The notes below the pieces were generated by a model. The model searched no databases and had not been told where the DNA came from. It saw nothing but the letters and a program-made list of their open reading frames with translations. Both the position numbers and the translations under genes were made by a program. 64,000 nt of DNA, taken from NCBI GenBank assembly GCA_964389465.1, contig CAYMDK010000005.1, forward strand, positions 22,169 to 86,168, written 5' to 3'. The DNA is from an uncultured archaeon. Lineage in GTDB: Archaea; Thermoplasmatota; Poseidoniia; MGIII; CG-Epi1. Below, in pieces: positions 16,201 to 63,056 of the stretch. Position 1 is the first letter of the stretch; each line of letters starts with the position of its first letter.

Positions 16201-16964
16201 CGGATAGAGGAGAAGTTGGAGCCGGTGCCGGAGCCGAACTTGAAGAGCCGCGCCTCACGCGTCCAGAGGTCCATGATGCCGCCCTCGTTCACCAAGTCGT
16301 CGCTCACCGACTGGATGAAGCAGGCGTGCGGCTGCGGGTGCTCGTAGGCATTGGTCGAGCGCTCCAGCGCGCCGCTTTCGGGGTCAACAAAGTGGTGCCC
16401 CTGCGCTGGTCCCTCAATCCCGTAGGCCCAGTTGAGGCCGGTGTTGAACCACTGCGGTGAGTTGGGCGACGCCATCTGTGCCGCCAGCATGTAGCACAAT
16501 TCGTCGTAAAACGCGCGCGCATCCTTCTCGGACACGAAGTAATCGTGTTTCCAGCCCCACCAGGTCCAGGTCCCCGCCAGGCGACGGAACAGCTCCTTCC
16601 CGTCAGTCTCGCCTTTCAGCCGTTTGCCGACGGGCAGCTTTGCCAGCGCCTTCGCATCCGGTGCGGAGCGGCGCAGCCATTTCGGCACGCCCTTCTCCGC
16701 GACCGCCTTCAGCTTGCGCGGGATGCCTGCCTTGCGGAAGTATTTCTGCGCAAGTACGTTGGCGGCGGTCTGGCTGTAACTGGTGGGAAGATTGACGCCG
16801 CGCATCTCGAATGCGGTCGTGCCGTCAAAGTTGCGAATCAGCGTGTCGCGCTTCTTCCAATCCAGCGCGTCGAATGCGTCGGCACCTGCGTCAGTAAAAC
16901 GCCTTTCAATTCCGAGTCCTTCCGGGTTGGCTGGCATCAGGCCACCCCCCAGGGTGGCCGACAT
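13257..16964 (-). CDS. nrdJ: Ribonucleotide reductase, class II, adenosylcobalamin-dependent (long form with C-terminal Cys4 zinc ribbon)
   Basis: GLGIERRFT...[64 protein letters not shown]. The C-terminus is [30 protein letters not shown]. The start is uncertain: ATG at 16964 ([16 protein letters not shown]) is used here. Alternatives are 16937 and the track's 17006, whose extra residues ([14 protein letters not shown]) lie in AT-rich DNA that looks non-coding. Confidence 0.93.
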
Positions 16965-17202
16965 GTAGCATCGTATTTTGTCTTTACAATCATGGGTTCG
17001 GGGCATTCTGGCTACCTGATATAAGCGTTACAGGGAATGATAATTTTGTACTATTCAACAAAATTCGGATGGTGTTCCACTCTTTTTTGCGGTAAAACAG
17101 GGTGGAACCTGCTAAAAACAGGGTAAAGGTTCCACGATTTATGTAGCTAAATGAGCGTGTATTTTCTCTTCGTCAAAATACGTTATAAGTGGCTTTTACG
17201 GG
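16965..17202 (-). promoter_or_regulatory. AT-rich structured upstream/leader region of nrdJ with three GTGGAAC elements
   Basis: GTTCCAC at 17074-17080, GTGGAACC at 17102-17109, GGTTCCAC at 17128-17135. Direct repeat AAAACAGGGT at 17094-17103 and 17115-17124. Hairpin AATTTTGT (17042-17049) paired with ACAAAATT (17058-17065). TATA-like CTTATATC on the minus strand at ~17019-17026. Confidence 0.35.
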
Positions 17203-19510: not shown

Positions 19511-20770
19511 ATGCACGACGTCGCCGTAGTGGGGCAGGGACCGGCCGGCGGGATGACGGCACTGCGGCTGGCCGAAGCGGGCCACTCGGTCATTACGTTC
19601 GAGCGCAAGCAGCGGGTCGGCGACCCGATTCACTGCGGCGAAGGCATTGGGCGCATCGCGCTCGAGCACACGAATTACCCGGTCGGCGACTGGGCCATCC
19701 GGAAGGTGAAGGGCAACCGCATCCGCATGCCCAACGGCAAGTCGGTGGGGCTGATGTCGCCCGGCTACTCAATCCACCGTTGGGGGCTCGACCGCACTAT
19801 TTCCGACGATGCCGTGAAGGCGGGCGCCGAGCGGCACGAAGGCGTGCGCGTCACGCAGGTGAGCCGCGAAAACGGGCAGTGGGCCCTCGCCTCGAAGGAC
19901 GGCCCGGTCGCGCAGGCGCGGCAGCTGGTGATTGCCGAAGGGCGGGTCCCGGTGCTGGTGACGCAGGTCGGCCTCAAGGGTAACGACAAGCTGCGGCTGC
20001 TGCCAGGATTGCAATACAAGTTCCGCACCAGTGACGTCGATTTCCCGGATACGGACTATTTCGACTTCTACATCAATCCCCGCTACGCCGACGGCTACGT
20101 CTGGGTCTTCCCGCGCGACGACGTCTTCAACGTCGGCATCGTTGCGACCAACGGAGCCAAGGCGGGCCTCGAGCAGTTCTGCCGCGACGAGATGCAGGTC
20201 GACCCCGACCAGCGCATCCCCAACGACCTGGGCGACCTGCAGAATGGCGGGCTGATTCCGCGCGACGGCCCCATCCCGCAGTTCGCGACGCGCGGCGCCT
20301 ACGTCGTCGGCGACTCGGCCGGGCTCACGAATCCGATAACCAAGGGCGGCGTCCACGTCGGGATGCTCTCGGGGGAATACGCCGCCATCGCCATCCGCAA
20401 CGCGCTCGGCAGCGGCGAGCTGGTGCCGCCTTCGCACGCCATCAACACCCACGAGCTGCGCGGCCTGCACTGGGAACGCGTTGGCCGGGCACTGCACCCC
20501 GGGCTGGAGCCGCACCTGTGGTACGACCGCATCCTGAAGCGGCAGCCGTGGACGCAGCAGCAGTTTGTCGATGAGTCAAAGCTGATTTACGCGCTGGACG
20601 AACGCGTCCTGAACCTGATTGGCGAAATCTACGACGGCCGCAACTACTCCGACCTGCCGTGGCTCAAGATGCTGGGCATCCTTGTTCGCAACCCCGATCT
20701 CGCCCCACTGGCGCGCAAGCTGCTCAAAATCAAGGCCAGCCTGAAGATAACTGAGAAATATGGGTGGTAA
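19511..20770 (+). CDS. Geranylgeranyl reductase family FAD-dependent oxidoreductase (paralog 1)
   Basis: MHDVAVVGQGPAGGMTALRLAEAGHSV (FAD dinucleotide fold), PIHCGEGIG, GYVWVFPR, VVGDSAGLTNPITKGGVHVGMLSG. A TATA-like CTTTTAAC at 19481-19488 lies ~26 nt before the ATG. Confidence 0.85.
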   Translation: MHDVAVVGQGPAGGMTALRLAEAGHSVITFERKQRVGDPIHCGEGIGRIALEHTNYPVGDWAIRKVKGNRIRMPNGKSVGLMSPGYSIHRWGLDRTISDDAVKAGAERHEGVRVTQVSRENGQWALASKDGPVAQARQLVIAEGRVPVLVTQVGLKGNDKLRLLPGLQYKFRTSDVDFPDTDYFDFYINPRYADGYVWVFPRDDVFNVGIVATNGAKAGLEQFCRDEMQVDPDQRIPNDLGDLQNGGLIPRDGPIPQFATRGAYVVGDSAGLTNPITKGGVHVGMLSGEYAAIAIRNALGSGELVPPSHAINTHELRGLHWERVGRALHPGLEPHLWYDRILKRQPWTQQQFVDESKLIYALDERVLNLIGEIYDGRNYSDLPWLKMLGILVRNPDLAPLARKLLKIKASLKITEKYGW

Positions 20771-30016: not shown

Positions 30017-31536
30017 CGGAGCCAGACGCCGGGGGCGACGAGCTCTTCTCCTCGCGTTTGGGGCTCATCCTGACCACCATCGGCGCCGCGGTCGGTACTG
30101 GCAACATCTGGCGCTTCCCGCGCGAGGCGGCTGCCAACGGCGGAGGGGCGTTCATGATTGGCTGGCTGCTGTTCCTCTTTGCGTGGTCAATCCCGCTGCT
30201 GATGGCCGAGTTCGCCATCGGCAAGAAGACGCGGCTCGGCACTATCGGCTCGATGCGCGACATGGCGGGGCGCAACTGGACCTGGATGGGGATGTGGATG
30301 GTATGGGTCGGCGTCGCGGTCGGATTCTACTATGCAGTGGTGATGGGCTGGACCATCCGCTACTTCTGGGTCGCGCTCTCTGGGGAGATTAACCTCGCCA
30401 CCGACACCGAGGCGACGACGCTGCTGTGGGAGAACTTCATCCACGATTCGCCGCTGGAAGTGGTCATGTTCCAGCTCATCGCCGTCACCGTCTCGGGCTT
30501 CATCGTCTACCGCGGTATCAGCGGCATCGAGCGCGCCAACACCATCCTGATTCCCTGTCTGGTCGGCTTCCTCATTGTCGCGATGATTTACCCCTTCATC
30601 CTCAACCCGTCGGGCGCGGCGACCGGCCTCCGCTTCCTCTTCATCCCGCAGTGGGAATACCTCTTCCGGGGCGAAACCTGGATTCGGGCGCTGACGCAGT
30701 CGGCGTGGTCCACCTCGGCCGGTTTCGGGATGGCGATTACCTATGCCGTGGCGATGAAGAAGAAGGAGGATATCGCGCTCAACGCGTTCCTCACCGGCCT
30801 CGGCAATAACTCCGTCTCGCTGATTGCCGGCGTCGCGGTGCTCGGCACCATCTTCGCCATGTCCGAGACGACGGCTGACGGCCTCGCCGCGGTCGAGGCT
30901 GGCTCCTCGGGGCTGACCTTCGTCCACCTGACGGCCCTCTTCGCTTCGATGCCGGGCGGGCGGGTGATGGGCGCCATCTTCTTCCTGGCGATGTCATTCG
31001 CCGCGCTGACGTCGATGATTGCGACCATCGAGATTGCGGCGCGCAACTTCGTCGACATGGGCTGGGAGCGCAATGAGGCGGTGAAATACATCTGTGTCGC
31101 CGTCGCGCTCTGCGGGCTGCCGTCGGCCTACAGCCTCGAGTTCCTCGACAACCAGGACTTCGTCTGGGGCACCGGGCTGATTGTTTCGGGGCTGATGGTG
31201 GCGGTGGTGGTGATGCGGTTCGGCACCAGCGAGTTCCGCGAGACTTTCATCAACACCGAATACAGCGACCTCTACATCGGCAAGTGGTGGGAATACATCA
31301 TCCGCTACGCGTTCCCGATTGAATTTGCGGTCGTCTTCGGTTTCTTCATCTACGAGAAGCTGCAGGACGCGTCGCACTCGCCGATTGCCGGCATGGACCT
31401 GGGGCTCTTCACCATCCTTACGATGGTGGTGCAATGGCTGATTATCATTGCCCTCTTCGCCTTCGCCTTCAACGACCGTATCGCAGATCAAATCAAGGCC
31501 GGCCCACTCACTGTAGCCGAAGCCGAAGAAGTTTAG
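30013..31536 (+). CDS. Sodium-dependent transporter, SNF (neurotransmitter:sodium symporter / SLC6) family
   Basis: TTG start in a TTGA overlap with the peptidase stop. LGLILTTIGAAVGTGNIWRFP is the NSS signature, followed by ~12 TM helices. Confidence 0.9.
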   Translation: MTEPDAGGDELFSSRLGLILTTIGAAVGTGNIWRFPREAAANGGGAFMIGWLLFLFAWSIPLLMAEFAIGKKTRLGTIGSMRDMAGRNWTWMGMWMVWVGVAVGFYYAVVMGWTIRYFWVALSGEINLATDTEATTLLWENFIHDSPLEVVMFQLIAVTVSGFIVYRGISGIERANTILIPCLVGFLIVAMIYPFILNPSGAATGLRFLFIPQWEYLFRGETWIRALTQSAWSTSAGFGMAITYAVAMKKKEDIALNAFLTGLGNNSVSLIAGVAVLGTIFAMSETTADGLAAVEAGSSGLTFVHLTALFASMPGGRVMGAIFFLAMSFAALTSMIATIEIAARNFVDMGWERNEAVKYICVAVALCGLPSAYSLEFLDNQDFVWGTGLIVSGLMVAVVVMRFGTSEFRETFINTEYSDLYIGKWWEYIIRYAFPIEFAVVFGFFIYEKLQDASHSPIAGMDLGLFTILTMVVQWLIIIALFAFAFNDRIADQIKAGPLTVAEAEEV

Positions 31537-33641
31537 GCCATTACGACTGGCGCGCCGCAGCCTCCGCAGAAATGCTGCCCCGGAATTAGCGCACCACTGC
31601 ACTGCCGGCAGCTGGTAGGCGCCTCCGGTTTTTCGGGCGTTGCGCTGCCGCAGCCACCGCAGAATTTCTGGTTGAGTGAGAGCGGTGAATTGCACTCGAG
31701 GCAGTGGTAGCCCAGCTCGCGCTCGCCCCGTTCGCGCAGCCGGATGCCGCACTTGCCACAGATGCGGAAGTCTGACGGCATGCGCGTACCGCAGTTGCCG
31801 CAGTTGACGTGGAAGCGGCGGGTGACGACGGTGCGCTCTGTCTCCGGGACCACGGTCGCGCCGACTGAGGAGGCGAAGAGCTCGCGCGGCTCGAACTGGA
31901 CCGTGTCGCCCACTTCGACAATATCCTGTTTCTGGTGGTGGTAATTGTCGCCCTCGAAGCTGTGGTAGACTACGTCCACCGTCAGCGGAACCAGCCCCTT
32001 CGCCTTCGGGTAGACCTCGATTTCCATCATGCGCTTCTCGCCCGGCTCCATGCTGTGCAGCAACGTATGGCCGCGTATCGCAAAGCTGTCGCCGAAGTCA
32101 AGCGTAATCTGCCGCGCGACCGCGCCGCCGATGTTTTCCAGCTCGAGCGGCAGCCCACTCCAGTCGTCAGGAGCCAGTGGGCCTTCCAGTCGCCCCCGCA
32201 GGACGATGTCCGGCCGTGAACCGACCGCTTGCCGTTGCGAGAGCTGGACCGCCTCCTCCGCCTTTTGCCGCGCTTCCTTGTAGCGCTGCTTGTGCAACAG
32301 CTTCTCCGCCTCCGCCAGCAACGTCTCTGAAGCGGCTACCGAGACACCCTTGTGGGAAACCGACTGGATGGTTGATTCAGCGCGTGTCAGGGCTGCCTTT
32401 GCCTCGTCGCTCTCCTTCTCGGCGCGCGCCGCCATCTCCTCGGCGCGCGCGGAATAATCAATACATTTGGGGTAGTCGCCGCGTGCGTACGCCTTTTCGG
32501 CATCCGCCAGCAGCTTGTCGGCCTGTCCGGTCGCGACCCCGAAATTCTGCGCCGAATGGATGACGCCGCGTGCCGATTCGAGCACCGCGGACGCCTTCTG
32601 GATGGCGCCGTAGTCAAGCGAGGAGACCTTGATTTGGTCCATCGCTTTTACCGCCGCGGTTCGCACAAGGTCATCGCCGTCGGTGAGTGCGTGCGCCAGC
32701 GACGGCACCGCCTCCTTGACCATTCCGATGTTGTTGCGCCCTATGATTCCCAGCAGCAGCGCCGCCTGTTCACGAATCTCCCAGCGCTGGTGACCAAGGT
32801 CATGCGCAAGGTGGCGCACCGCCGGGGAGAACTGCTTCGGGTCGCGCTCCGCCAGCGGCTGCGCGGTAAGGATGGCGTGCAGCCTCAGCTCCGGGTCAAC
32901 CTTGCGCGCGGTCAGCGGCCGCAGCAGCAGCCGCGGTATCGCCGCGACGCCAGCCGCACCAGCCGAAATCAGCATCTGTCCCGCCTGTTCCTGGATGGCG
33001 GAATCGCGGTGGCCGAGCAGCTTCACCAGCTGTGGCGCTGCGCGAGCGAGCGCCGTCGGCTGCCGCTCGGCCACAGGCCCCAGCAGCGTCAGCGCATTCC
33101 GGACGGTCGCCGGCTTCCTCGAGCCGAGCTGCTTTGCCAGCTGCGCCGCCACCGCCGTTGGAGCGCGCCGCCCCAGGTCGGCAATCAGCTGTAGCAGCGG
33201 TGCCTGGACTCCCGGCAAGGGGTCGTCCAGCCGCCCGACCAGCTTGGTCAGCTGCGGCAGCACCGCCTTGGGTTCCTGGCGGGCGACTTTGCCGAGCAGC
33301 CCCAGCGCAGCGATGCGGTTGTCCATGCGGGTGTCCTGCACCAGGCCCGCCAGCGGTCCGACAGCCTTCGTGAAGCTCTTGGGGTGAAGGTCGAACAGAT
33401 GCAGCAGCAGCAGCACCACTTGGTGGCGCACCGCCGAGTTGTCGTCGGAAAGCAGTTTCGTGACTTGCGACAGGAACTTGGGAACCAGTCGCGGCACGAA
33501 GTGGTCGTGCAGCTGGCGCACGAGGGTAATACGCCGGTCGGGCGAGGCTCCGGTAATGGACTTCAGCCGTCGCTCAATCCGGGTCGCTTCATGAGCAGCC
33601 CGGATATCTTCGCCAACGCCCAAGGGAATTCCTCCCGACAC
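31533..33641 (-). CDS. Cytoplasmic HEAT-repeat / coiled-coil / beta-sandwich / triple zinc-ribbon protein
   Basis: The N-terminal ~330 aa are HEAT-like repeats (D.N..VR..A...L). A central coiled coil follows (AEKAYARGDY...AEKLLHKQRYKEARQKAEEA). Next comes a CARDB-like segment (LPLELENIGGAVARQITLDF..). The C-terminus reads CGNCG..CGKCG..CLEC..CGGCG..CRQC..CGGCG. It lies 32 nt downstream of dnaK on the same strand. Confidence 0.8.
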   Translation of the reverse strand: MSGGIPLGVGEDIRAAHEATRIERRLKSITGASPDRRITLVRQLHDHFVPRLVPKFLSQVTKLLSDDNSAVRHQVVLLLLHLFDLHPKSFTKAVGPLAGLVQDTRMDNRIAALGLLGKVARQEPKAVLPQLTKLVGRLDDPLPGVQAPLLQLIADLGRRAPTAVAAQLAKQLGSRKPATVRNALTLLGPVAERQPTALARAAPQLVKLLGHRDSAIQEQAGQMLISAGAAGVAAIPRLLLRPLTARKVDPELRLHAILTAQPLAERDPKQFSPAVRHLAHDLGHQRWEIREQAALLLGIIGRNNIGMVKEAVPSLAHALTDGDDLVRTAAVKAMDQIKVSSLDYGAIQKASAVLESARGVIHSAQNFGVATGQADKLLADAEKAYARGDYPKCIDYSARAEEMAARAEKESDEAKAALTRAESTIQSVSHKGVSVAASETLLAEAEKLLHKQRYKEARQKAEEAVQLSQRQAVGSRPDIVLRGRLEGPLAPDDWSGLPLELENIGGAVARQITLDFGDSFAIRGHTLLHSMEPGEKRMMEIEVYPKAKGLVPLTVDVVYHSFEGDNYHHQKQDIVEVGDTVQFEPRELFASSVGATVVPETERTVVTRRFHVNCGNCGTRMPSDFRICGKCGIRLRERGERELGYHCLECNSPLSLNQKFCGGCGSATPEKPEAPTSCRQCSGALIPGQHFCGGCGAPVVMA

Positions 33642-48421: not shown

Positions 48422-49216
48422 TCAGCCGCCGCGCTTGAGCAGCGTGCGGGCGACGTTGCCCTGTTTGTCAACGTAGTAGAGCCAGCCCCGCTCGCGCGTG
48501 ACGCCCGCGTCGGCGACCTTCTCGGCTCCGCCGCCCGGTACCGTGCCGCGCGCCATGCGGGTGCGCCAGATGTCGCCATCCTTGCCGAGGTAGTAGAGGA
48601 AGCCCGACTCCTTCGCGAGGTCGGTCTCCGCAACCACGCCCGCGTCGCCCTCGGGTTTCGGTGCTGGAGGCTTGTACTTCTGCCGCAGCTTGCGCGGTCG
48701 CCCCGGCTTCCAGCTCTCGACCGCCGCCTTGCCGTCCGCACCGTGTCGCATCAGCGACGCTGCCGCACGGTCGCGCACCTGCGGATGGCGGTCCCGGAGC
48801 GCCTCGGTCAGCGCCGCCGTCGCGTCGCCGCCGGGGAATCGCGCCAGCCCTTTCGCCGCCTGCCAGCGGACGTAGTGATCGGAGCTGGTGAGCCCCTTCA
48901 CGAGGTACGGCACGCCCGCTTCCGAGCCGACGCGGCCGATGGCGTCCATCGCGGCGCGCTGGACGAAGAAGTCGTCCGAGTTGAGCCCGCCGTTGATTAT
49001 CGGCTCGAGCGCTTGCTCGCTCATCCGGCTGAAGAGCTCAAGCGCTGACTGCCGCACGAAGTGGTTTTCGTCATCGAGATGGTCGACCAGTGCTGTCGCA
49101 ACCTGCTTTTCGCTGTGCGGAATTTTTGCTTCGAGCTGCGTTATCGCGCTGCGCCGCCCAACGTCGTCATCGCGACCAAGGTGCGAAATCAGTTCCTCAA
49201 TATCGTTACGGGCCAT
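48422..49216 (-). CDS. HEAT (PBS-lyase-type) repeat protein with a duplicated C-terminal G[FW]LYY..K.G motif
   Basis: HEAT-type repeats (DENHFVRQSALELF, DDFFVQRAAMDAIG, SDHYVRWQAAKGLA, RHPQVRDRAAASL). These are followed by ESGFLYYLGKDGDIWRTRMARG and ERGWLYYVDKQGNVARTLLKRG. Confidence 0.8.
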   Translation of the reverse strand: MARNDIEELISHLGRDDDVGRRSAITQLEAKIPHSEKQVATALVDHLDDENHFVRQSALELFSRMSEQALEPIINGGLNSDDFFVQRAAMDAIGRVGSEAGVPYLVKGLTSSDHYVRWQAAKGLARFPGGDATAALTEALRDRHPQVRDRAAASLMRHGADGKAAVESWKPGRPRKLRQKYKPPAPKPEGDAGVVAETDLAKESGFLYYLGKDGDIWRTRMARGTVPGGGAEKVADAGVTRERGWLYYVDKQGNVARTLLKRGG

Positions 49217-52092: not shown

Positions 52093-52632
52093 ATGGAGGA
52101 GTATGCCTGCGTCCTGGATATCTTGCCGGAAGGCCGCCCTGATGACCGACGGCAGTTCCGTCGCGAGGCCATCGTCTACGGCCTCGGCATTGACGAGTTC
52201 AAGATATTCGAGATGGCGCCGATACCGGGAGCTGTAATCAACATCGGCGACCGCGTATTCATCGGCAAGGAGACGGACGAGCGCAAGCAGATTGAGCGGG
52301 TCCGTGCCCGCGTCAGCTACGCCGAGCTGACGCACACCGCGCAGTCGGAGCTCGGCTTCCTGCTTGAGGAGCTGGTCAGCGAGCATGAAGAGAAGTTCAT
52401 CCAGTTCTACAACCACGCCGGCCCGATTTCGCGCCGCTACCACTCGCTCGAGTTGCTGCCCGGGCTTGGCAAGAAGACCATGGAAGGCATCATCGCGCAC
52501 CGCCCCTACGCCAGCTTCGCCGAGGTCGAGGAGAAGGTACCCAACATGCGGCACCCCGAGAAGTATATTGCGGCGCGTATCGAGCACGAAATTCGCGAGC
52601 CCGAGCAGAAATACCGGCTCTTCGTGCGTTAA
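52093..52632 (+). CDS. DUF655 (COG1491) predicted RNA/nucleotide-binding protein
   Basis: MEEYACVLDILPEGRP...VYGLGIDEFKIFEM..., HSLELLPGLGKKTMEGII (helix-hairpin-helix). Confidence 0.85.
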   Translation: MEEYACVLDILPEGRPDDRRQFRREAIVYGLGIDEFKIFEMAPIPGAVINIGDRVFIGKETDERKQIERVRARVSYAELTHTAQSELGFLLEELVSEHEEKFIQFYNHAGPISRRYHSLELLPGLGKKTMEGIIAHRPYASFAEVEEKVPNMRHPEKYIAARIEHEIREPEQKYRLFVR

Positions 52633-53570
52633 AGTGTCCAGCCGTATTCGATAGCGCCAGCGACAACCAGCCGCACGTCGGCGTTGCCGCTCAGCGAAAC
52701 CTGTAGGGTCCAGTTGCCGCTGGCGCCAGTCACGACTCCCAGTCCCCGGTGGCTGTTGCCCGGCGCGTACACCCTGGTCAGCTGCGCCCCATCGTGGTCG
52801 CGCAGCACCAGCTCGCCGCTGCCCGACCGGATATCCTCCTCGAGCCAGTAAACGATGTAGTTCCACGGCCCGTAGCGCACATGCCCGTCGTTGGCGAAGG
52901 CGGTGTCGTAAAACTCGAAGTCCGGCCCGGAGAACTCGCCCTCGTAGAGGTCGCCGCCACGGCAGAACCACACCTCACCCGCGAAGCCGGAGCTTGTTTC
53001 GACTAGTGTCATGCGCAGGAGCTCGCTGCCATCGGCGTCGGTCCGCACGAAGCTGGTGAGCCAGCCGCTGCCGCGGTCGTAAACGTAATCCAGCCGGTCG
53101 CCTGACGGGGATTCAGCCACGATGGTCGCCCGTCCGTCGGCGACCGCCGTGATGCTGGTGTCAAAGCGGTCGACGCCGAACAGGGAAAAATTCCAGGCGG
53201 CGCCCGCCGTGAGCGGGAATTGCAGCAGCAGTTGTGGCTCGTTCTTTTCGTAGAGTGCCATGTCCGCCACCCGGACGCGGCCGAGCGCCGGGTTGTGGTT
53301 CAGCACTGCGTGCCGCTGCGCGTCGACCAGCCGGCTCGAGCCAAGATGGTAGTCGGTCTCGTCAACGTCGCCGACGACCATCGTCGTCACCACTTCCGCC
53401 TCAGGAATCACGACCGCGTAGGTCCACGTCTGCCCCACTTCCCATGCCGGAGCGGTGATGGCGGCAGCGCCATCGCCGTCGTCCCCGCCAGGCGACGTGC
53501 CGAGGCAACCGGCCGCCAGCAGGAGCAGCACCACGGTCGCGGAAGCGAGCCTCATCGCGGACCCGAGCAC
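52629..53570 (-). CDS. Hypothetical secreted lipoprotein-like protein
   Basis: Signal plus lipobox-like MRLASATVVLLLLAAGCLG, then an all-beta-type Thr/Val/Gly/Asp-rich sequence. Confidence 0.7.
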   Translation of the reverse strand: MLGSAMRLASATVVLLLLAAGCLGTSPGGDDGDGAAAITAPAWEVGQTWTYAVVIPEAEVVTTMVVGDVDETDYHLGSSRLVDAQRHAVLNHNPALGRVRVADMALYEKNEPQLLLQFPLTAGAAWNFSLFGVDRFDTSITAVADGRATIVAESPSGDRLDYVYDRGSGWLTSFVRTDADGSELLRMTLVETSSGFAGEVWFCRGGDLYEGEFSGPDFEFYDTAFANDGHVRYGPWNYIVYWLEEDIRSGSGELVLRDHDGAQLTRVYAPGNSHRGLGVVTGASGNWTLQVSLSGNADVRLVVAGAIEYGWTL

Positions 53571-54694: not shown

Positions 54695-54985
54695 CTACTC
54701 GATGGATTCCCACTCGACCGTATCAGGCAGTACAATGCCCTGGTCACGCAGGATTTCGCGAAACGCCTCGGGGCGCAGCGAGGCAATCTCGGCGCCCTTG
54801 GTCAGCGTCGCCTGGCCGCTGCGGTAGAGTTCGACCGCCGCGGCGGCCCGGAAATGCTGTTTTTCTTCGAGGAAGAAGCGCAGTGCTTCCTTGACTACGT
54901 CGGAGCGGCTGCTGAAATGACCTGAAGCGACAAGGGCGCCAATCTGTGCAACCAGCAGTGTGGGGAGCGAAAAGGAGCTGCTCAT
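54695..54985 (-). CDS. Ribbon-helix-helix (ParD/CopG-like) plus UPF0175-like fusion protein
   Basis: The N-terminus LPTLLVAQIGALVASGHFSSRSDVVKEALRFFLEE follows the ParD-type RHH pattern. The C-terminus AVELYRSGQATLTKGAEIASLRPEAFREILRDQGI follows the UPF0175 pattern. Confidence 0.7.
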   Translation of the reverse strand: MSSSFSLPTLLVAQIGALVASGHFSSRSDVVKEALRFFLEEKQHFRAAAAVELYRSGQATLTKGAEIASLRPEAFREILRDQGIVLPDTVEWESIE

Positions 54986-55068: not shown

Positions 55069-58000
55069 ATGCACAATACCAACCTGAACACGCCAGTAAA
55101 GCTCGCGCTGCTGTTTGCAGTGGGGCTCGCCATGCTCGCATTCATGCCATCGGCAGAAGCGGCAGAGTCATTCACCGTAGATGTTTCACCATCTACCCAG
55201 AACGGTGAACCCGAGGAGACGCTGACCTACACAATCACTGTCGAGAACACGGGTGACAATGATGACTCCTATAACCTGACTATCACTAGCACCAACCGCT
55301 CGGGCTGGAAGGAATACATCCTGCCCACTTCGCTGGATGTCAAGGACGGGCAGTCGGAAACTGCCACACTCTATGTCGAGATTGGTGACCGCGATGACGC
55401 GCCCGCGGGCGTGACTGAGTTCATCACCTTCAAGGTCGAGTCGGTTGACCTCAGTTCCGGTGCCAAGAGCAAGTCAGTGACTGCCAAGGTAACACAGGTC
55501 TATGGTAACAGCCTGTCAGTTAACGGCACTACCACGCAGAAGACCGACCCGGATGAAACCGTGACGTTCGCCATCAAGGTAACCAACGACGATGGCAACG
55601 GTGAGGACACAATCACGTTCAGCCAGACCAGTTCGGGAACCGATGACTGGTCTTTCGTCTTTCCCGGGAGCATAACTCTCGACAAGGATGAATCCACTGA
55701 AATCTCATTCTCGGCGACCCCCGATATCAACGCCCTCGCCGGGCTGAAGAGCATCAGCCTCTTCGCCACTTCCGAGGATGGCGATACCAAAACCTCGGTA
55801 ACGATAACCGTGCGCGTGAACAAGCTGCCTGACCTGAACGTGGTCAAGGTTGGCACGAGCGCTCAGGATGTTGAAGCGGGCAAGCGGGTCTATTACTCGT
55901 TCTCAGTGACCAACAAGGGGAACGCAGTTGATTCATACGACCTTTCTATCGAGAACGGCAGCTGGTACGACAAGGGCTGGGAAGCTTCGCTTGACAGCGA
56001 GGAAATCAGCAGTCTCGACGTTGATGAGACCATCAACCTGACCGACGTACTGGTCATCAAGGCGCCCGCGAACGCCGCAGCCGATGAGGAAGTGACCATC
56101 AAGGTCAAGGTCTCATCGCAGGAAAACTCTTCGGTCTACAAGACCTACACTTCGCGCACCACGGTCCTGCAGGACTTCGAGCCGAAGCTGAAGGTGATTG
56201 GTGGAGACACCCAGTCTGCCGAGCCCGACGTGGAGGTCTCCTACACGATTAACATCACTAACGAAGGTAATGGCGAGGATGATATCACCCTCACGCTCCA
56301 CGGCGGCAACGCCACCTGGGGAACTCTCGCGGAATCTTCCTTCACCCTCGCCGCTGGCGAGAGTGACGAGACCACGCTGCGCGTCACCGCTCCTGACGGG
56401 ACACTGGCGCAGAACGGCTACACGATTACTGTCCGCGCCACTTCCGAGGATACTAGCACTCGCGCCAACCGCAACGTCTTCCTGAACGTCCAGCAGGTGT
56501 TCGAGGTTTCTGTCTCGGTTTCGGGCGATTCGACCAAGAATGGCGACCCCGGCGATTCGCTCTCGTACGTGATTACGGTCAAGAACAAGGGCAACGGCGA
56601 GGATACGGTCAACCTGGCCCTTGAGGGCACCGAGGCCGACTGGGGCTCGATTGTTGAGGACGTTGACCTCGACGCAGGGCAGTCCACTACTGTCAACCTG
56701 ACGGTCAGCATCGATGAGGAAGCTAACTTCGGCGACTATACCATTACCGTTAACGGCTCCTCGGATGAGGCTACCACCGACACCTACGACACCACTTCGG
56801 TGACTGTCACGGTCAACAAGGAATACCAGGTTGACCTGCTGATTAACGAAGCCCAGAAGAACGGCGATGCCGGCAGCTCCGTAGTTTACGATATCATAGT
56901 CAAGAACAAGGGTACAGGTGAAGACACCATCCGCCTCTCGGTGCCCACCCTGCCCTCCCTCTGGACCGCCAACTTCAACGAGACCGAAGTTGACATCGAG
57001 GCTGGCGAGGATGCGCTGGTGAACCTTACAGTTGCAATTAAGGAAAAGGAGGACAACCGGGCCTTTTATGTCAACATCACCGCCATTTCCATTGGCGCCA
57101 AGGATGAGGACAAGGACGTCAACGCCACCGCCTCGACGATTACCACGGTCAACCAGTACTACGAGTTCCGCATGACCTCTGCGCTGACCTACACCAGGGC
57201 AGACCCGGAGGACACCTTCACCGTCGACATCCTGATTGACAACAAGGGTACTGGTGATGACACGGTTAACCTCGAAGTTACCGGCCCCGAGAACGCGACC
57301 GGCTGGGTTACCGACATTACGCCTTCGGTCGAGGTCCCCGAAGGAGAGAACCGCACCGTGACCCTCACCGTTACTGTCTCGGAAGACGCGGTCAAGGATT
57401 CCTACTACATCACTGTCACTGGCGCTTCCTCTGATCAGGCGTCCGAGACGCACGCCGTCACCATTCAGGCCGATGTCAGCCAGCGCTACGAGGTACAGAT
57501 GCTGCCCCGTACGGAGACCAAGGCGGCCGAAGCCAACGACATGCTGGAATTCTCGATTACCGTCAAGAACAAGGGTACCGGCGAGGACACCTTCGACCTC
57601 GAGCTGGGCGGTGAGGTCGGCGTCAGCTGGGGCTCGCTCTCCAACGTCAGCCTCACGATTGCCGCAGGCGATTCTGCGGACGTTGTCCTGACAGTCGAAG
57701 TACCGGCCGACGCTCAGCCCAAGTCCGAGGGTGCATACGAAATCCTTGTTAACGCCACTTCGGTCGACAATGCGACTGCGGTCGACTCGGTTGTACGTTA
57801 TATAGACGTCGAGAAGAAGAATCTGGACGTCGAGGTAACTGCCGAGTCCTCAACCGCGCAGGCCGAACCGGGCGATGATGCCTTTTTCGACGTCAATGTC
57901 AAGAATGTCGGGAATGACGTTGACATTGTCACGCTGACTTTCCCGACTGACAGCCGCCAGTGGGCTACTTTTGTTACCAGCGGGACTGATACGCATACGG

Positions 58001-61000
58001 TAAACCTGACGGTGAACCAGCAGAAGACGGTCCGCATCAAGGTCTCCCTGCCGGAATACGCCAACGCGACCGGACAGGACAAGAGCGCGCTGGAGGCCAG
58101 CAGCTACCAGGTCACAATCAAGGCGACTACCGGCGACGGCAGTCGCTGGGAAACGGCGTCTCTCAGCACCAGTATCCAGCAGATATACGGTGCCGAAATC
58201 ACGGCGCAGGGCGCCAGCAGCGTCATAACCTTCCCTTCGACCGAGTCGAGCGCCAGTGACCGCGAAGAGAAATTCACCTTCAAGCTCAAGAACCTGGGCA
58301 ATAAGCAGGACACAATCGATGTCGAGGTGAGTGGCTCCGGCTCTACTTTCCCTGATGAGTGGACGGCTTCAATACACACTAGTTCAACCTGCTCCGGTAC
58401 GTTCAGCGGCTCTGTAAGTGCTGGCTCTTCCAAGACTTTCTACCTCTGTATTACGCCCGACCAGGATTCGGAGCCGGGCAACTATACTGTATTTGTCGAA
58501 GCCACTGCGCGAAACGGTGCCGAGGAACCGGTCACCGACAGCGTAATGGTCGAAGTGCGTGACCCGACCCGCAGCCTGACGCTCGCCTCGGACGAGCCGG
58601 GAATTATTCTGGCACCCGAACAGGGCAACGACGAGAAGAACACTGCACGTTTCAAGATCGTGATTACCAATACCGGCAGCCATGACGACAAGTTCATCGC
58701 CGAGCTGGATGAGGTACTTGGCAGCGGCTGGACCACCGACTTCTACACCAAGAACACCGGCTCGACCGGCGACAAGTGGTCCACCAGCGGCGAAGATATT
58801 GAGGATGGCCAGACCGACGACCTCTGGTTCATCGTCGAGGTTGACCCCGATGAAGTGGATGAGGGCAACTACACCATGTCGCTCACGATCAAGAATGCCG
58901 GCGAGGACATATCGCAGTCGATCAGCCTGACGCTGCAAATCAATGCTCCGCAGCGTGGCCTGACGGCGAGCGTGATTGATGAGTCCAAGGAAATCTCGCC
59001 GGAATACAAGGCGTCCGCCAGCTCCACCAAGAACATGGTCAAATTCAAGGTGAAGCTGGAGAACAGCGGCACCCACCCCGACAAGTTCATCCCCGAAGTC
59101 GAGTCAACGCTTGATGACGAGTGGGAAGTGAGTTTCTATCAGGACAGCTCCAAGACGTCGCCCTGGTCAACTTCCTCGGGCGTTGAAATCGAGGCCAACG
59201 AGCTTGACGACCTGTGGGTCTTTGTCGAAGTTGATGATGAGGCTGACGAGGGCAACTACACTATCACCATCTCGGTCCGCAATGAGGAGGACGACCCCTC
59301 CGCCCGGCAGGAATTCACGCTGAACATTCATGTCCAGCGCTCCGACATCACCCTCTCCGCCAGCGATATCCAGCTAGAAGCGGATGGCGTGCTCGGTAAT
59401 GCCTCGGCCGTCAAGGACGGTGATACCGTGACCGTGCTGGTTGACGTTACCAATGAGGGTAACGCCGACGCGGACGACGTGCAGGTGGAAATCTTCTACT
59501 ACCCCAAGAAGGCGCCCGAAGACCAGAATGATATCGATGACCTCATCAACAAGGGCTTCGAGCTGGACGACGACAAGAACACCTACATCTATTCGCTCTT
59601 CAAGAAGCGCACCAACCTGAAGGCTGGTGCGACCAAGTCGCTTGCCTCCGATGACTGGCTTATCGAGGCTGGCGAGTGGTATGTCGAAGTTCGCGTTGAT
59701 TATGATGAGGATGACTCCGACAATGGTGAAATCCTTGAGAACAACGAGAACAACAACGACGCACGCTACGGCGAGCTGCTGCGCATCAAGCCCGACCTCA
59801 CCATCAGCGACCTGCGTGTCGACGCGCGTTTCGTGGGCCTCACGGCCAGGACACCCAATATCGATGACCAGGTTACCTTCACGGCGACCGTGACCAACAA
59901 GGGAGCGGCCGATGTTGACAATGCGCGGCTCTACATCACTGCCGACAGCAGCGACGAGAGCGGCGTCATCCTCAAGGACCGCGGCATCAAGGACCACGTC
60001 GAATTCAGCATTGATGCTGGCGCGACTGAGACCATCCGTTTCCGCTGGAAGGCGGTGAGCGGTGAGTGGACCACCTTCCGTGCTGACGTCAACCCGAGCT
60101 GTGACGACTTCGCCATCAACATCTTCGACTGCGAGCAGCAGGGTGACGGCGACGGTGGCGACACCGACCACATGTATGACGAGTTGAACCGCTACAGCGA
60201 CAACACCTTCCCTGCTGGCGGCGACGCGTTCCAGCAGGAGGGCGTCGAGGTCAAGTTCGACATCCTGCCTGACTTCAGCATCAAGGAGGTCAAGATGGAC
60301 CCGCGCGTACCCGAAGTAGGGGACGACGTTGAAATCACGGTCGTTATCGAGAATACCGGTAACGCCGACTGGAAGATTGGCAGCCAGCTACTCTCGCTCG
60401 TCTTCGATGATGGTGTCGGTAACACCATCACCACGCAGGTGAGCAGCGACATCAACGAGGGTGACGAGATCGAAGTCAAGTTCACCTGGAAGTTCCCCGA
60501 CGAGGACAAGGACTCACTGCTCCTCACCTACGAACTGGATGTCGGCAGCGGCAGCTGGGAGATAGACCAGACTGACAATTCCAATGACGAATACGAAGAG
60601 AGCGTCACGGTAATCCAGCCCGCAGTCGTGGGCGAGATTGCTGCCCTGGATGTCTTCAGCCGTGAACTGGTGCGTGGCACTGGCTTCAAGGTCTACCACT
60701 TCGTGGCGCTGATGTTCGTCGCCGTGCTCGCGATTGCGGTGCCGGTGGTTATCTCGCGTCGCATGCGCCGGGGAGCTGCTGCGGTCGAGGAAGATGATGC
60801 AGCGCCCGAGGCAGTCGCCGAGGCGCCGCTCGCCAAGATCGGGCTCGCAATCCAGTCGGCGGTCGACGGCAAGACGGCCAACGTCAAGGTCCCCTCCGAC
60901 ATGCCGATCGAGCGGCTCATCCAGAACTGCGTCGAGAAATTCCCGCTGCCGCACGCCAACTTTGCGGCACATGTGAACGGTGAGGCGGTCGATTCAGGCC

Positions 61001-61065
61001 TCTCGCTAGTTGACGCGGGGCTGGTCGACGGCTCTGAAATCCAGCTGGTTTCGCTCGAAGAGTGA
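55069..61065 (+). CDS. Giant (~2000 aa) cell-surface protein: signal peptide, ~12 NEW3/COG1470-like beta-sandwich repeats, 3 CARDB-like modules, TM anchor, cytoplasmic ubiquitin-like tail
   Basis: ATG 55069 (MHNTNLNTPVKLALLFAVGLAMLAFMPSAEA); the track uses GTG 55039. The repeat core recurs as TYTITVENTGDNDDSYNL, SYVITVKNKGNGEDTVNL and EFSITVKNKGTGEDTFDL. TM helix at 60691-60753. See findings for the tail. Confidence 0.9.
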   Translation: MHNTNLNTPVKLALLFAVGLAMLAFMPSAEAAESFTVDVSPSTQNGEPEETLTYTITVENTGDNDDSYNLTITSTNRSGWKEYILPTSLDVKDGQSETATLYVEIGDRDDAPAGVTEFITFKVESVDLSSGAKSKSVTAKVTQVYGNSLSVNGTTTQKTDPDETVTFAIKVTNDDGNGEDTITFSQTSSGTDDWSFVFPGSITLDKDESTEISFSATPDINALAGLKSISLFATSEDGDTKTSVTITVRVNKLPDLNVVKVGTSAQDVEAGKRVYYSFSVTNKGNAVDSYDLSIENGSWYDKGWEASLDSEEISSLDVDETINLTDVLVIKAPANAAADEEVTIKVKVSSQENSSVYKTYTSRTTVLQDFEPKLKVIGGDTQSAEPDVEVSYTINITNEGNGEDDITLTLHGGNATWGTLAESSFTLAAGESDETTLRVTAPDGTLAQNGYTITVRATSEDTSTRANRNVFLNVQQVFEVSVSVSGDSTKNGDPGDSLSYVITVKNKGNGEDTVNLALEGTEADWGSIVEDVDLDAGQSTTVNLTVSIDEEANFGDYTITVNGSSDEATTDTYDTTSVTVTVNKEYQVDLLINEAQKNGDAGSSVVYDIIVKNKGTGEDTIRLSVPTLPSLWTANFNETEVDIEAGEDALVNLTVAIKEKEDNRAFYVNITAISIGAKDEDKDVNATASTITTVNQYYEFRMTSALTYTRADPEDTFTVDILIDNKGTGDDTVNLEVTGPENATGWVTDITPSVEVPEGENRTVTLTVTVSEDAVKDSYYITVTGASSDQASETHAVTIQADVSQRYEVQMLPRTETKAAEANDMLEFSITVKNKGTGEDTFDLELGGEVGVSWGSLSNVSLTIAAGDSADVVLTVEVPADAQPKSEGAYEILVNATSVDNATAVDSVVRYIDVEKKNLDVEVTAESSTAQAEPGDDAFFDVNVKNVGNDVDIVTLTFPTDSRQWATFVTSGTDTHTVNLTVNQQKTVRIKVSLPEYANATGQDKSALEASSYQVTIKATTGDGSRWETASLSTSIQQIYGAEITAQGASSVITFPSTESSASDREEKFTFKLKNLGNKQDTIDVEVSGSGSTFPDEWTASIHTSSTCSGTFSGSVSAGSSKTFYLCITPDQDSEPGNYTVFVEATARNGAEEPVTDSVMVEVRDPTRSLTLASDEPGIILAPEQGNDEKNTARFKIVITNTGSHDDKFIAELDEVLGSGWTTDFYTKNTGSTGDKWSTSGEDIEDGQTDDLWFIVEVDPDEVDEGNYTMSLTIKNAGEDISQSISLTLQINAPQRGLTASVIDESKEISPEYKASASSTKNMVKFKVKLENSGTHPDKFIPEVESTLDDEWEVSFYQDSSKTSPWSTSSGVEIEANELDDLWVFVEVDDEADEGNYTITISVRNEEDDPSARQEFTLNIHVQRSDITLSASDIQLEADGVLGNASAVKDGDTVTVLVDVTNEGNADADDVQVEIFYYPKKAPEDQNDIDDLINKGFELDDDKNTYIYSLFKKRTNLKAGATKSLASDDWLIEAGEWYVEVRVDYDEDDSDNGEILENNENNNDARYGELLRIKPDLTISDLRVDARFVGLTARTPNIDDQVTFTATVTNKGAADVDNARLYITADSSDESGVILKDRGIKDHVEFSIDAGATETIRFRWKAVSGEWTTFRADVNPSCDDFAINIFDCEQQGDGDGGDTDHMYDELNRYSDNTFPAGGDAFQQEGVEVKFDILPDFSIKEVKMDPRVPEVGDDVEITVVIENTGNADWKIGSQLLSLVFDDGVGNTITTQVSSDINEGDEIEVKFTWKFPDEDKDSLLLTYELDVGSGSWEIDQTDNSNDEYEESVTVIQPAVVGEIAALDVFSRELVRGTGFKVYHFVALMFVAVLAIAVPVVISRRMRRGAAAVEEDDAAPEAVAEAPLAKIGLAIQSAVDGKTANVKVPSDMPIERLIQNCVEKFPLPHANFAAHVNGEAVDSGLSLVDAGLVDGSEIQLVSLEE

Positions 61066-62240
61066 TTGACGCACTGGTTGTCGGCGCCGGCCCCTCCGGC
61101 AGCCGCGCCGCGTGGAAGCTGGCCGAGGCGGGCTATAGCGTCGCGGTCGCCGAGGAGGATTCGCGCGTTGGCGACCCGTGCCAGTGCGCCGGGCTCGTAA
61201 CGCCGCGCACCCTCGACTACCTCGGCTACCGCCTGCCAGTGCTGCAGGAGATGCGCGGAGCGCGAGTCTGGGGGCCGCACGACAGTTACCTCGAGTTCGA
61301 AGCGTCCGAGACCAAGGCGTTGGTGATTGACCGCCCCGGGCTGGACCGCTCGATTGCGGAGCGCGCCGAAAAAGCGGGCGCCGAAATCTGGACCTCGACG
61401 CGTTACACGCGCGGCTGGCGCGAGAACGGCGGGATGGTCGCCGAACTGCAGGGGCCGGATGGCCCGCGGCAGGTGCGGGCGCGGCTGCTGATTGGCGCCG
61501 ACGGCCCCGCCTCGCGGGTGGCGCGCGATGCCGGGCTGCACAACCGGCGCGAAGTGATGGCCGCCTTTGGGGGCGACATCAGCGGCTACGCGGCGCGCGA
61601 CGGCTACGTCGACCTCTTTGTCGGCTCCGAGCTGGCGCCGCGCTTCTTCGGCTGGGCTATCCCGACCGGCGGCGACACCGGTCGCCTCGGCGTTGCGACG
61701 ACGCTGCCGCACCGGCCGCGCAAGTTCTTCCGCGACTATTTCCGCCGGGGCGCGCCGTCGCGCCTGCTCGACGGCGCCAAGCTGACCGCGCGTGTCAGCG
61801 GGCTGATTCCCTTCGGGCTGCGTGAGCCCGCCTTCGCCGACCGCGTGCTGCTCACTGGCGACGCGGCGGGCCTCGCGAAGCCGACTTCGGGCGGCGGCAT
61901 CTACACCGGCCTCGTGAGCGCTGATGCGGCGGCCGAGACCGCCATCGCGGCGTTCGAAGCGGACGACCTCTCGGCGGGTCGTCTGGCGGTTTACCAGCAA
62001 ATGCTGCGCGACCGCATCGCTGGCGAGTTGCAATTGGGGGCACGGCTGCGGCGCGCGTTCCTGGCGCTGGACGACGAGCAGCTGGCCGAGATTATCGGGA
62101 TGCTGGGCGACCCGGCGGTGCTGGCCGCAATCCAGCGCGCGGGCGACCTCGACTACGCCTCACGGGCGGCGTTCGCGGTGCTTAAGGCGCAGCCGAAGCT
62201 GGTTAAGTTTGCCCCGCTGCTGCTGAAGCCATTTGTTTAG
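61062..62240 (+). CDS. Geranylgeranyl reductase family FAD-dependent oxidoreductase (paralog 2)
   Basis: GTG start in a GTGA overlap with the giant gene's stop. IDALVVGAGPSGSRAAWKLAEAGYSV, LIGADGPASRVAR, LLTGDAAGLAKPTSGGGIYTGLVS. Confidence 0.85.
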   Translation: MIDALVVGAGPSGSRAAWKLAEAGYSVAVAEEDSRVGDPCQCAGLVTPRTLDYLGYRLPVLQEMRGARVWGPHDSYLEFEASETKALVIDRPGLDRSIAERAEKAGAEIWTSTRYTRGWRENGGMVAELQGPDGPRQVRARLLIGADGPASRVARDAGLHNRREVMAAFGGDISGYAARDGYVDLFVGSELAPRFFGWAIPTGGDTGRLGVATTLPHRPRKFFRDYFRRGAPSRLLDGAKLTARVSGLIPFGLREPAFADRVLLTGDAAGLAKPTSGGGIYTGLVSADAAAETAIAAFEADDLSAGRLAVYQQMLRDRIAGELQLGARLRRAFLALDDEQLAEIIGMLGDPAVLAAIQRAGDLDYASRAAFAVLKAQPKLVKFAPLLLKPFV

Positions 62241-63056
62241 TCCGGGGTAGGTACCCTCTTCCTCAAGGTAGAAAACTACTGCCAGTCCGGCAAACATCAC
62301 TGTCAGCCCAATCATGACGTAGAGTGGCCACTTGGGAATCGGCTCCTTGACGCCGAAGCTCGAGTCGGGAATCACCCCGTCCACCTCCAGCGCGGTAAGG
62401 TTGATGTTGCCGGGCGCCCCGTCGGGGACGTCGGTCGTCGCTGCCTCCCATTCGGCCATCGACCAGTGGCCGCGCGAGAGCATGCTGCGCGTGGTGCCGT
62501 TGTGGTCGAACTCGAGCGTGAACTGCACGAAATACGTGCCTTCCGCCGTGCCGGTTTCGCAGCGGCTGCCGAGCAGCGTGCAGCGCAGCCACGACCGCTC
62601 TTCCGTGGAATGGATGTCGGTCGCGAAGCGGACGCTCTCGCCCGGCGCCAGCGTTCCCGGGCTGAAGGTCGCGCGCTGCGGCGCGGGCGCCGCAGCGCAC
62701 TCGCGTTCTCCGTCGGGGAGCCGCGTCCAGCAGCCCTCCTCGACGCGCGGCCGCGCGTCGGCCGCGACGGAGTCGATGGTTTCCGAGCCGTCGATGTCGG
62801 CGCGCATGTAGATTTCCATGCTGACGACGACGTTCTCGAGCGGCTCCGCGTAGCGGTTCGTCACCTCGAGCGTGAACGGGCCACTGCCTCCCGGCGCCAG
62901 CTGCGGGGTCGTGAAGTTGTGGAAGTCAGGGATATTGCCGGGGTGGCTGACGTAGGGGTCCCAGTCGGCCCCGCCCGGCTGCGCTACGAACAGCGCCAGC
63001 GCCAGCAGCGCCACGGCCGGCCTGAGCACGCTCCGCGGTGCCGTTTCCCCACGCAT
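62160..63056 (-). CDS. Hypothetical secreted protein with C-terminal TM anchor
   Basis: Signal-like LRPAVALLALALFVAQPGGA, a beta-rich ectodomain, a TM helix WPLYVMIGLTVMFAGLAVVFY, and a basic tail. Its last 81 nt overlap the 3' end of the convergent reductase gene. Confidence 0.65.
   Translation of the reverse strand: MRGETAPRSVLRPAVALLALALFVAQPGGADWDPYVSHPGNIPDFHNFTTPQLAPGGSGPFTLEVTNRYAEPLENVVVSMEIYMRADIDGSETIDSVAADARPRVEEGCWTRLPDGERECAAAPAPQRATFSPGTLAPGESVRFATDIHSTEERSWLRCTLLGSRCETGTAEGTYFVQFTLEFDHNGTTRSMLSRGHWSMAEWEAATTDVPDGAPGNINLTALEVDGVIPDSSFGVKEPIPKWPLYVMIGLTVMFAGLAVVFYLEEEGTYPGLNKWLQQQRGKLNQLRLRLKHRERRP

Follow-up and report, generated by a model that had tools for sequence, protein, structure and literature searches.

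A predicted ubiquitin-like cytoplasmic tail on a giant surface protein of uncultured Poseidoniia archaea

Why should a giant archaeal surface protein carry, beyond its membrane anchor, a small tail that resembles ubiquitin? The question is raised by a gene on a 64,000-nucleotide stretch of DNA (contig CAYMDK010000005.1; the whole stretch is called the window here) from an uncultured archaeon of the Poseidoniia. The original prediction, made from the sequence alone, had read the last residues encoded by this gene as a beta-grasp domain facing the cytoplasm. Profile searches and structural modeling give good support to the tail being a ubiquitin-type beta-grasp domain and a member of the ubiquitin-like superfamily, and its predicted cytoplasmic position is likewise well supported by standard rules of membrane-protein topology.

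The open reading frame (ORF) extends on the plus strand from GTG 55039 to TGA 61063-61065. Translation most likely starts at ATG 55069, which gives a protein of 1998 amino acids (aa), with GTG 55039 as an alternative start; the gene call in a public metagenome assembly with an identical protein also begins at ATG 55069. The full-length protein carries no name in public records. The transmembrane (TM) helix, the motif SRRMRRG, the acidic linker, and the 75-aa tail are all as the original prediction had quoted them, and the gene is organized as follows.

55069..61065, plus strand: gene for the giant type I envelope protein, 1998 aa (ORF, public gene call, and full-length orthologues of 1775-2000 aa)
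55069..55161, plus strand: Sec-type signal peptide MHNTNLNTPVKLALLFAVGLAMLAFMPSAEA (hydrophobic segment at aa 6-32, then AEA)
55156..60612, plus strand: ectodomain of 15 tandem immunoglobulin (Ig)-like beta-sandwich modules (FixG_C / NPCBM_assoc / CARDB / DUF11 in Pfam; choice-of-anchor T in NCBIfam)
60691..60753, plus strand: single C-terminal TM helix VYHFVALMFVAVLAIAVPVVI, aa 1875-1895 (peak hydropathy 2.85)
60754..60774, plus strand: basic cluster SRRMRRG, predicted cytoplasmic side (RRRS, RRRG, or RRRSKK in the other clade)
60775..60837, plus strand: acidic Ala/Pro-rich linker, probably flexible (Ala/Pro/Glu/Asp, read from the sequence)
60838..61062, plus strand: predicted ubiquitin-like beta-grasp tail, 75 aa, ending ...LVSLEE without a terminal Gly (profiles, AlphaFold2, and Foldseek)

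Direct comparison of the tail with ubiquitin provided a modest starting point. Smith–Waterman alignment matched the two sequences without gaps over 61 columns with 15 identities and a score of 44, compared with 22.9 +/- 4.1 for shuffled sequences (z = 5.2; one of 2000 shuffles scored as high), and BLASTP of the same pair reported no match. The hand alignment on which the original prediction was based was roughly right in this likeness; its count of about 18 identities was too high, and its gaps did not recur. The pairwise signal appears weak when taken alone, and the case depends on profiles and structure. The only Pfam families matched by the tail were TUG-UBL1 (E 2e-4, 21.7 bits), YukD (3e-4, 21.9 bits), and Rad60-SLD (8e-3). 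Among NCBIfam models, the tail aligned to positions 5-79 of EccD (TIGR03920), which form the N-terminal ubiquitin-like domain (Ubl) of that family (E 3.6e-4, 19.5 bits). The sole match to a family without a Ubl in the NCBIfam scan was HpnD (E 0.035), which fell on the linker region and was taken as noise. A phmmer search of the tail against the PDB returned only ubiquitin designs, Ubl4A, and polyubiquitin.

Profiles built from orthologous tails extended this signal. With an orthologue-only profile made from five close orthologues, a search of 1.84 billion representative proteins yielded 20 matches at E <= 1e-3, the strong ones being orthologous C-termini and the second tier (E 1.7e-10 to 2e-4) comprising mostly bacterial proteins with ubiquitin-like domains. 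Three of the proteins recovered (P0013, P0019, and P0020) reached the threshold of Pfam YukD (PF08817), and another (P0022) fell just under it. Profile–profile comparison with hhalign of 11 Poseidoniia-only sequences with 27 stand-alone PF08817-positive proteins gave a probability of 96.8% (E 2.9e-10) over 74 of the 79 columns. The Poseidoniia-only profile had 18 weak matches in the PDB, every one of which was ubiquitin-like or contained a ubiquitin-fold region, and the closest domains in the PDB profile searches were the Ubls of ubiquitin, ubiquilin, Dsk2, Ubl4A, and midnolin. Precomputed Pfam assignments of the orthologues were PF11470 or PF11976, not PF08817. The likeness to EccD and YukD pointed out in the original prediction was borne out both by these hidden Markov model (HMM) matches and by the literature on the Ubls of the two proteins.

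Structural modeling gave the same fold. AlphaFold2 (AF2) with only the five close orthologues returned a mean predicted local distance difference test score (pLDDT) of 52, yet showed the order beta-beta-alpha-beta-beta; this model was rejected for the fold search because of its low confidence and was replaced by a model from a 16-sequence alignment. The latter had a pLDDT of 86.7 and a predicted template-modeling score (pTM) of 0.70, again with the beta-beta-alpha-beta-beta order. Foldseek of the AF2 model against the PDB gave 660 matches at E<=1e-3, with query template-modeling scores (TMq) of 0.75-0.86 and a root mean square deviation of about 2 Å, and the top 50 were all ubiquitin, SUMO, NEDD8, ISG15, Dsk2, Ubl4A, or the archaeal ubiquitin of Caldiarchaeum. 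Neither the profiles nor the structure searches produced evidence for any fold besides the beta-grasp.

The side of the membrane on which the tail is predicted to lie follows from the arrangement of hydrophobic segments. A Kyte–Doolittle scan detected only two, the signal peptide at aa 6-32 and the TM segment at aa 1871-1899, and four Arg residues fall within five positions (RRMRR) directly after the TM helix. The tail is predicted to be cytoplasmic because the signal peptide would export the N-terminal part and only a single further TM helix follows, then RRMRR; the placement proposed in the original prediction agrees with this. The modules of the ectodomain are of Ig-like kinds found on extracellular proteins. 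Counts of Lys and Arg in the 15-aa flanks of the TM helix were 3 and 4 and not decisive, so the argument rests on the signal peptide, the single TM helix, and RRMRR. Glycosylation sequons, counted as a further sign of an extracellular ectodomain, were not significantly enriched in the giant protein (25 vs 20.4 +/- 3.9 in shuffled sequences). The protein thus shows the signal peptide, extracellular repeats, single C-terminal TM helix, and basic flank of a type I archaeal surface protein.

The tail is a regular part of this protein and not a peculiarity of one assembly. It was present on full-length orthologues (1775-2000 aa) and numerous C-terminal fragments from many independent assemblies, and also in five species-representative metagenome-assembled genomes (MAGs) assigned to Poseidoniia, Thalassarchaeaceae, or 'Methanobacteriota archaeon'. 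The contig scan, which used patterns from one clade, detected five Poseidoniia loci (L001-L005) and two chance matches (L006 and L007), and its count is a lower bound on the distribution. Two Poseidoniia clades were distinguished by the end of the tail (...HVNG...EIQLVSLEE and ...VMLNG...DLVPLE), the second being referred to here as clade B. Every orthologue covering the C-terminus has the TM helix, the basic cluster, an acidic or Ser-rich linker (Ser/Asp/Glu-rich in clade B), and the tail, which shows no insertions or deletions; the distance from the end of the TM helix to the first strand of the tail is about 28-36 aa. An assembly or frameshift artifact was excluded on the grounds that the in-frame fusion occurs in many independent assemblies from two clades, as the original prediction had required of a genuine domain. 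All 11 aligned orthologous tails end in LVSLEE or LVPLE, and a terminal Gly occurs in none.

The tail is also better conserved than the rest of the protein. Across the two clades, 27 of its 79 columns are invariant, including VPS(N/D)MP before the helix, QNC in the helix, LPH.NFA after the helix, NG..VD, GL.D, and the C-terminal L.E. Identity to the window protein differed among regions as listed below.

L003-L005: tail 79-80%, ectodomain 60-62%, linker 61-68%
P0007 (clade B): tail 66%, ectodomain 51%, linker 36%

The conservation of these apparent surface motifs fits a specific partner. In the ungapped alignment, LPH.N would map to the I36-Q40 loop of ubiquitin, and the C-terminal residues of the tail would lie near L71/L73; in ubiquitin, the region of the I36-Q40 loop and L71/L73 is an interaction patch. 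The invariance of motifs outside the core supports the view that the tail offers a specific interface and is more than bulk.

These features suggest the following mechanism. As follows directly from the sequence, the giant protein is exported by its signal peptide and kept in the membrane by the one C-terminal helix, and a flexible acidic tether, about 28-36 residues long, suspends the Ubl on the cytoplasmic side. There the tail would serve as a docking piece, permanent and non-covalent, on the inner face of the membrane, in the manner of YukD and the N-terminal Ubl of EccD in the type VII secretion system (T7SS), and would bind a cytoplasmic or membrane-associated partner, thereby coupling the 15-module acidic envelope protein to the cell interior. 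Such coupling may serve the assembly, positioning, or retention of the envelope protein. We regard it as somewhat more probable than an even chance that the tail is a non-conjugatable YukD/EsaB-like Ubl that docks non-covalently to a candidate cytoplasmic or membrane partner.

The known systems illustrate both the strength and the limits of this analogy. YukD is not conjugated; its contact with the channel ATPase YukB is non-covalent, and assembly of the type VIIb system depends on YukD. The EccD Ubl docks onto EccC, and both Ubls serve, on the cytoplasmic side of membrane complexes, as structural connectors that act non-covalently. The tail shares with EsaB/YukD (PF08817, the type VIIb subunit) a beta-grasp of about 75-80 aa, the lack of a C-terminal di-glycine, and a predicted cytoplasmic location at the membrane. 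YukD also shares the best Pfam score with TUG-UBL1, and the profile–profile result with PF08817-positive proteins indicates homology. The two differ in that YukD is a free protein, whereas the Ubl here is a C-terminal fusion on a single-pass giant surface protein of an archaeal host, with no T7SS genes in its context and with a score under the Pfam gathering threshold. EccD of the type VIIa system resembles the giant protein in having a Ubl tethered covalently to a membrane protein and facing the cytoplasm. However, its Ubl is N-terminal, precedes 11-12 TM helices, and is not accompanied by a large ectodomain, whereas the Ubl here lies at the C-terminus, preceded by about 1840 extracellular residues and a single TM helix; EccC was not found here, and the EccD score, which covers the Ubl part only, is far from the full-length cut-off of 94.95 bits.

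The nearest relatives in sequence (E 1.7e-10 to 2e-4) are bacterial PF08817 Ubls outside the T7SS, which include stand-alone proteins of ~86 aa ending ...TAG, 2xUbl-TPR, CHAT-Ubl-Hint-Ubl, and TM-2xUbl architectures. The LP motif that follows the helix is common to them and the tail, and P0020 is also membrane-anchored; unlike the tail, the stand-alone forms have an invariant terminal Gly, and none is on an Ig-repeat surface protein. Within this group, P0024-P0112 are bacterial PF08817 'YukD' proteins of ~86 aa, nearly all with ...TAG, whose invariant Gly is the last residue or lies near the end, and P0019 has the order CHAT - Ubl - PT-HINT - Ubl, with its first Ubl ending ...RAG right before the Hint Cys. 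These ...TAG proteins and P0019 look like a processed or conjugatable class of Ubls under a T7SS family name. From ubiquitin, SAMP, and ThiS-MoaD modifiers, which are conjugatable, the tail differs in lacking the terminal Gly, and no gene for an E1-like enzyme was detected in the window.

On the extracellular side, the protein resembles archaeal S-layer proteins, other archaeal surface proteins with a C-terminal TM helix, and choice-of-anchor T proteins in its signal peptide, Ig-like/CARDB modules, acidity, and single C-terminal TM helix. The archaeal anchors described so far either terminate in a short basic tail or have lipid in their place (PGF-CTERM). The difference lies in the folded cytoplasmic domain predicted after the anchor, of which the literature searched gave no example. 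Within that literature, which took in few subscription papers, no archaeal surface protein was found to be described with a cytoplasmic tail of the ubiquitin-like kind. This agrees with the original prediction, whose statement needs the qualification that one C-terminal fragment of an orthologue is already named 'EsaB/YukD family protein' by the automatic annotation of NCBI. The domain is known, and the architecture appears to be new.

Several observations weigh against the docking reading. All Pfam matches of the window tail are under the gathering scores (21.9 vs 27 bits for YukD PF08817), and the Poseidoniia profile did not reach the B. subtilis YukD and EccD chains in the PDB at E<=10. The alignment behind the confident AF2 model took in distant Ubls, which makes the model partly dependent on the profile evidence, and the topology was derived from hydropathy and rules rather than from a dedicated predictor. 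Part of the difference in conservation between tail and ectodomain could come from selection on the exposed ectodomain that is relaxed or diversifying. Finally, no partner gene was found in the window, in five GTDB genomes, or in three further contigs (20-kb syntenic loci), which showed only housekeeping or unassigned envelope genes.

Against this background, the tail could instead be a mechanical stopper, a beta-grasp knob that keeps the single TM helix from being pulled out and has no specific partner. One TM helix has to hold an ectodomain of about 1840 aa, the domain is at the extreme C-terminus in all orthologues, and no partner gene was seen nearby; ubiquitin folds are mechanically stable, and giant bacterial RTX adhesins have plug-type retention modules. 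A passive knob, however, needs neither 27 invariant columns, including the non-core PSNMP, QN, and LPH.N, nor a flexible tether that keeps it about 28-36 residues away from the membrane, and we consider this explanation fairly unlikely. The tail might also be a handle for degradation or extraction, by which an AAA+ unfoldase (Cdc48/VAT or PAN-proteasome) recognizes the Ubl and extracts the membrane stub or misassembled copies for degradation. Eukaryotic Ubl domains deliver proteins to the proteasome, the fold is nearest to the Ubls of ubiquitin, ubiquilin, Dsk2, Ubl4A, and midnolin in the PDB searches, and the disordered-looking, flexible linker could be engaged by an unfoldase. No AAA+ or proteasome gene was found linked to the locus, and archaeal unfoldases are not known to recognize Ubl domains that are not conjugated; we consider this role decidedly unlikely. 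Another idea is that the tail is one half of an inside–outside coupling system read by a cytoplasmic machine, either for Cdc48/VAT-proteasome extraction, with the giant protein as a 'pre-ubiquitinated' substrate similar to those of endoplasmic-reticulum-associated degradation, or for patterning of the cell surface by a scaffold of the cytoskeleton or of cell division. We regard this as unlikely; if true, such coupling would be a non-covalent archaeal forerunner of ubiquitin as a tag on membrane proteins.

Two further explanations were considered. The presence of YukD and the EccD N-terminus among the best HMM matches and the NCBI name of the orthologue fragment would fit a genuine YukD/EsaB/EccD component of a type VII-like system. 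The Pfam scan of the about 53 ORFs of the window detected no FtsK/EssC/EccC ATPase, WXG100, ThiF-type E1, or JAB gene, nor any other T7SS gene, and T7SS genes were likewise absent from the called genes of the syntenic contigs L008-L010. Moreover, the giant protein has its own Sec signal peptide, its nearest PF08817 relatives occur in non-T7SS architectures (CHAT, TPR, and Hint), and such systems are described only in Bacillota and Actinomycetota, to which the 2006 survey of prokaryotic Ubls also confined YukD. A role as a secretion component is very improbable, and the giant protein is not a T7SS part. Fusion of a conjugatable or released modifier of the SAMP, ThiS, MoaD, or ubiquitin type, here taken together with an assembly or frameshift artifact, is suggested by the invariant terminal Gly of distant stand-alone relatives and by the one relative with a Ubl directly before a Hint domain. 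The tails of Poseidoniia all end with LE or LEE, two or three residues before the position of that Gly, and the E1 (ThiF) and JAB genes that would accompany conjugation are the ones missing from the window. As the Ubl is C-terminal, cleavage upstream would not yield a reactive C-terminus. This possibility is almost certainly not realized, in line with the original view that a tail without a terminal Gly is unlikely to be a SAMP-type modifier. Non-covalent docking to a partner remains the reading that we prefer, at the strength given above.

The ectodomain was characterized separately. It comprises ~1840 residues, is very acidic (net charge -213), and matches FixG_C, NPCBM_assoc, CARDB, and DUF11 Ig-like domains of Pfam along its length. 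Choice-of-anchor T (NF041740) scored 246.1 bits over 10 stretches, compared with a cut-off of 70, and this match falls on the Ig-like repeat modules, not on the tail. A repeat-unit HMM tiled residues 30-1848 into 15 modules, 12 with a period of ~105-130 aa and three longer CARDB-like ones, which reproduced the number of repeats in the original prediction; because this HMM was derived from the giant protein itself, the information lies in the tiling and not in the E-values, which are circular. The sequence of the ectodomain is that of an ordinary surface protein of the Ig-repeat 'choice-of-anchor' kind. Its central Ig-like modules (56960-58160, aa ~630-1030) are hypervariable, with 14-41% identity and indels of 44-64 residues, and the N-terminal and membrane-proximal modules stay at 39-79% identity between orthologues. 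Such a hypervariable center would be expected if viruses or grazers, for example, exert diversifying pressure on a surface region. A second copy of the tail was searched for in the 64-kb window and not found; the tail occurs once.

Gene calling has obscured this architecture in other assemblies. At L009 (6212-11545) and L010 (6076-11620), the orthologue of the giant gene was called as four to six consecutive ORFs, reflecting frameshifts or assembly errors. Because the giant gene is split into several ORFs, databases place the tail on 'proteins' of 470-740 aa, and the architecture is hidden. These were considered as small paralogues and rejected, as they start mid-domain, have no signal peptide, and lie at loci with a split giant gene.

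The giant gene is conserved and syntenic in the Poseidoniia MAGs recovered. Both clades keep the gene order Pus10 - (L21e) - RpoF - DUF655, followed by a minus-strand lipobox protein, FolC, and a small ribbon-helix-helix protein, and then by the giant gene, a geranylgeranyl-reductase-family gene, and a minus-strand type I membrane protein. L001-L005 show the same housekeeping synteny, as judged by the order of large ORFs only. The neighbors of the giant gene in the window are as follows.

52629-53570, minus strand: lipobox-type secreted protein (conserved neighbor without family assignment)
54695..54985, minus strand: ribbon-helix-helix / ParD-like (UPF0175) gene, 96 aa (divergent from the giant gene, conserved in both clades)
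61062..62240, plus strand: geranylgeranyl-reductase-family FAD enzyme (directly downstream in both clades)
62160-63056, minus strand: type I membrane protein that has a signal peptide and, toward the C-terminus, a TM helix and a strongly basic tail (conserved neighbor without family assignment)

The GTG start of the reductase overlaps the TGA of the giant gene in the window (GTGA, 61062-61065), which suggests co-transcription of the envelope protein with a putative lipid-saturating enzyme and does not imply a functional link. A second gene similar to the geranylgeranyl reductase is located at 19511-20770. The 96-aa ribbon-helix-helix gene is possibly a regulator, and no toxin partner for this ParD-antitoxin-like gene was seen. 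Together with the genes at 62160-63056 and 52629-53570, the giant gene forms a small cluster of envelope-protein genes. Its G+C content (0.576; 0.75 at third codon positions, GC3) is below that of its neighbors (0.67-0.71; GC3 about 0.83-0.87), and an amino-acid composition rich in D/E/N/T/S/K may account for part of this.

The remaining ORFs of the window are housekeeping genes, including those for class II ribonucleotide reductase, DnaK/GrpE, tRNA synthetases, phosphoenolpyruvate carboxykinase, ribosomal proteins, and primase. With 1249 aa, the class II ribonucleotide reductase (13257-17006, minus strand) is of unusual length, and a TSCPD domain lies at its C-terminus; neither an intein nor a Hint domain was detected in it at E<=1e-5. 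A HEAT/adaptin-like repeat protein with a C-terminal double zinc ribbon (31533-33641, minus strand) and a second HEAT-repeat protein nearby (48422-49216, minus strand) are also encoded, and the syntenic block of the clade-B loci is flanked by HEAT-repeat genes as well.

In the surface ocean, few archaea are more abundant than the Poseidoniia (marine group II). To our knowledge, they have never been cultured, and their envelope is known from genomes only. The tail, modeled as a small domain that folds by itself, could be expressed for pull-downs, which would make the docking idea testable without cultivation. With a folded cytoplasmic Ubl as the best-conserved part of the protein, the implication is that the interior of the cell retains or reads its largest surface protein. 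A partner, if there is one, would provide a first handle on envelope assembly in Poseidoniia and would extend YukD-type Ubl connectors from bacterial type VII secretion to archaea.

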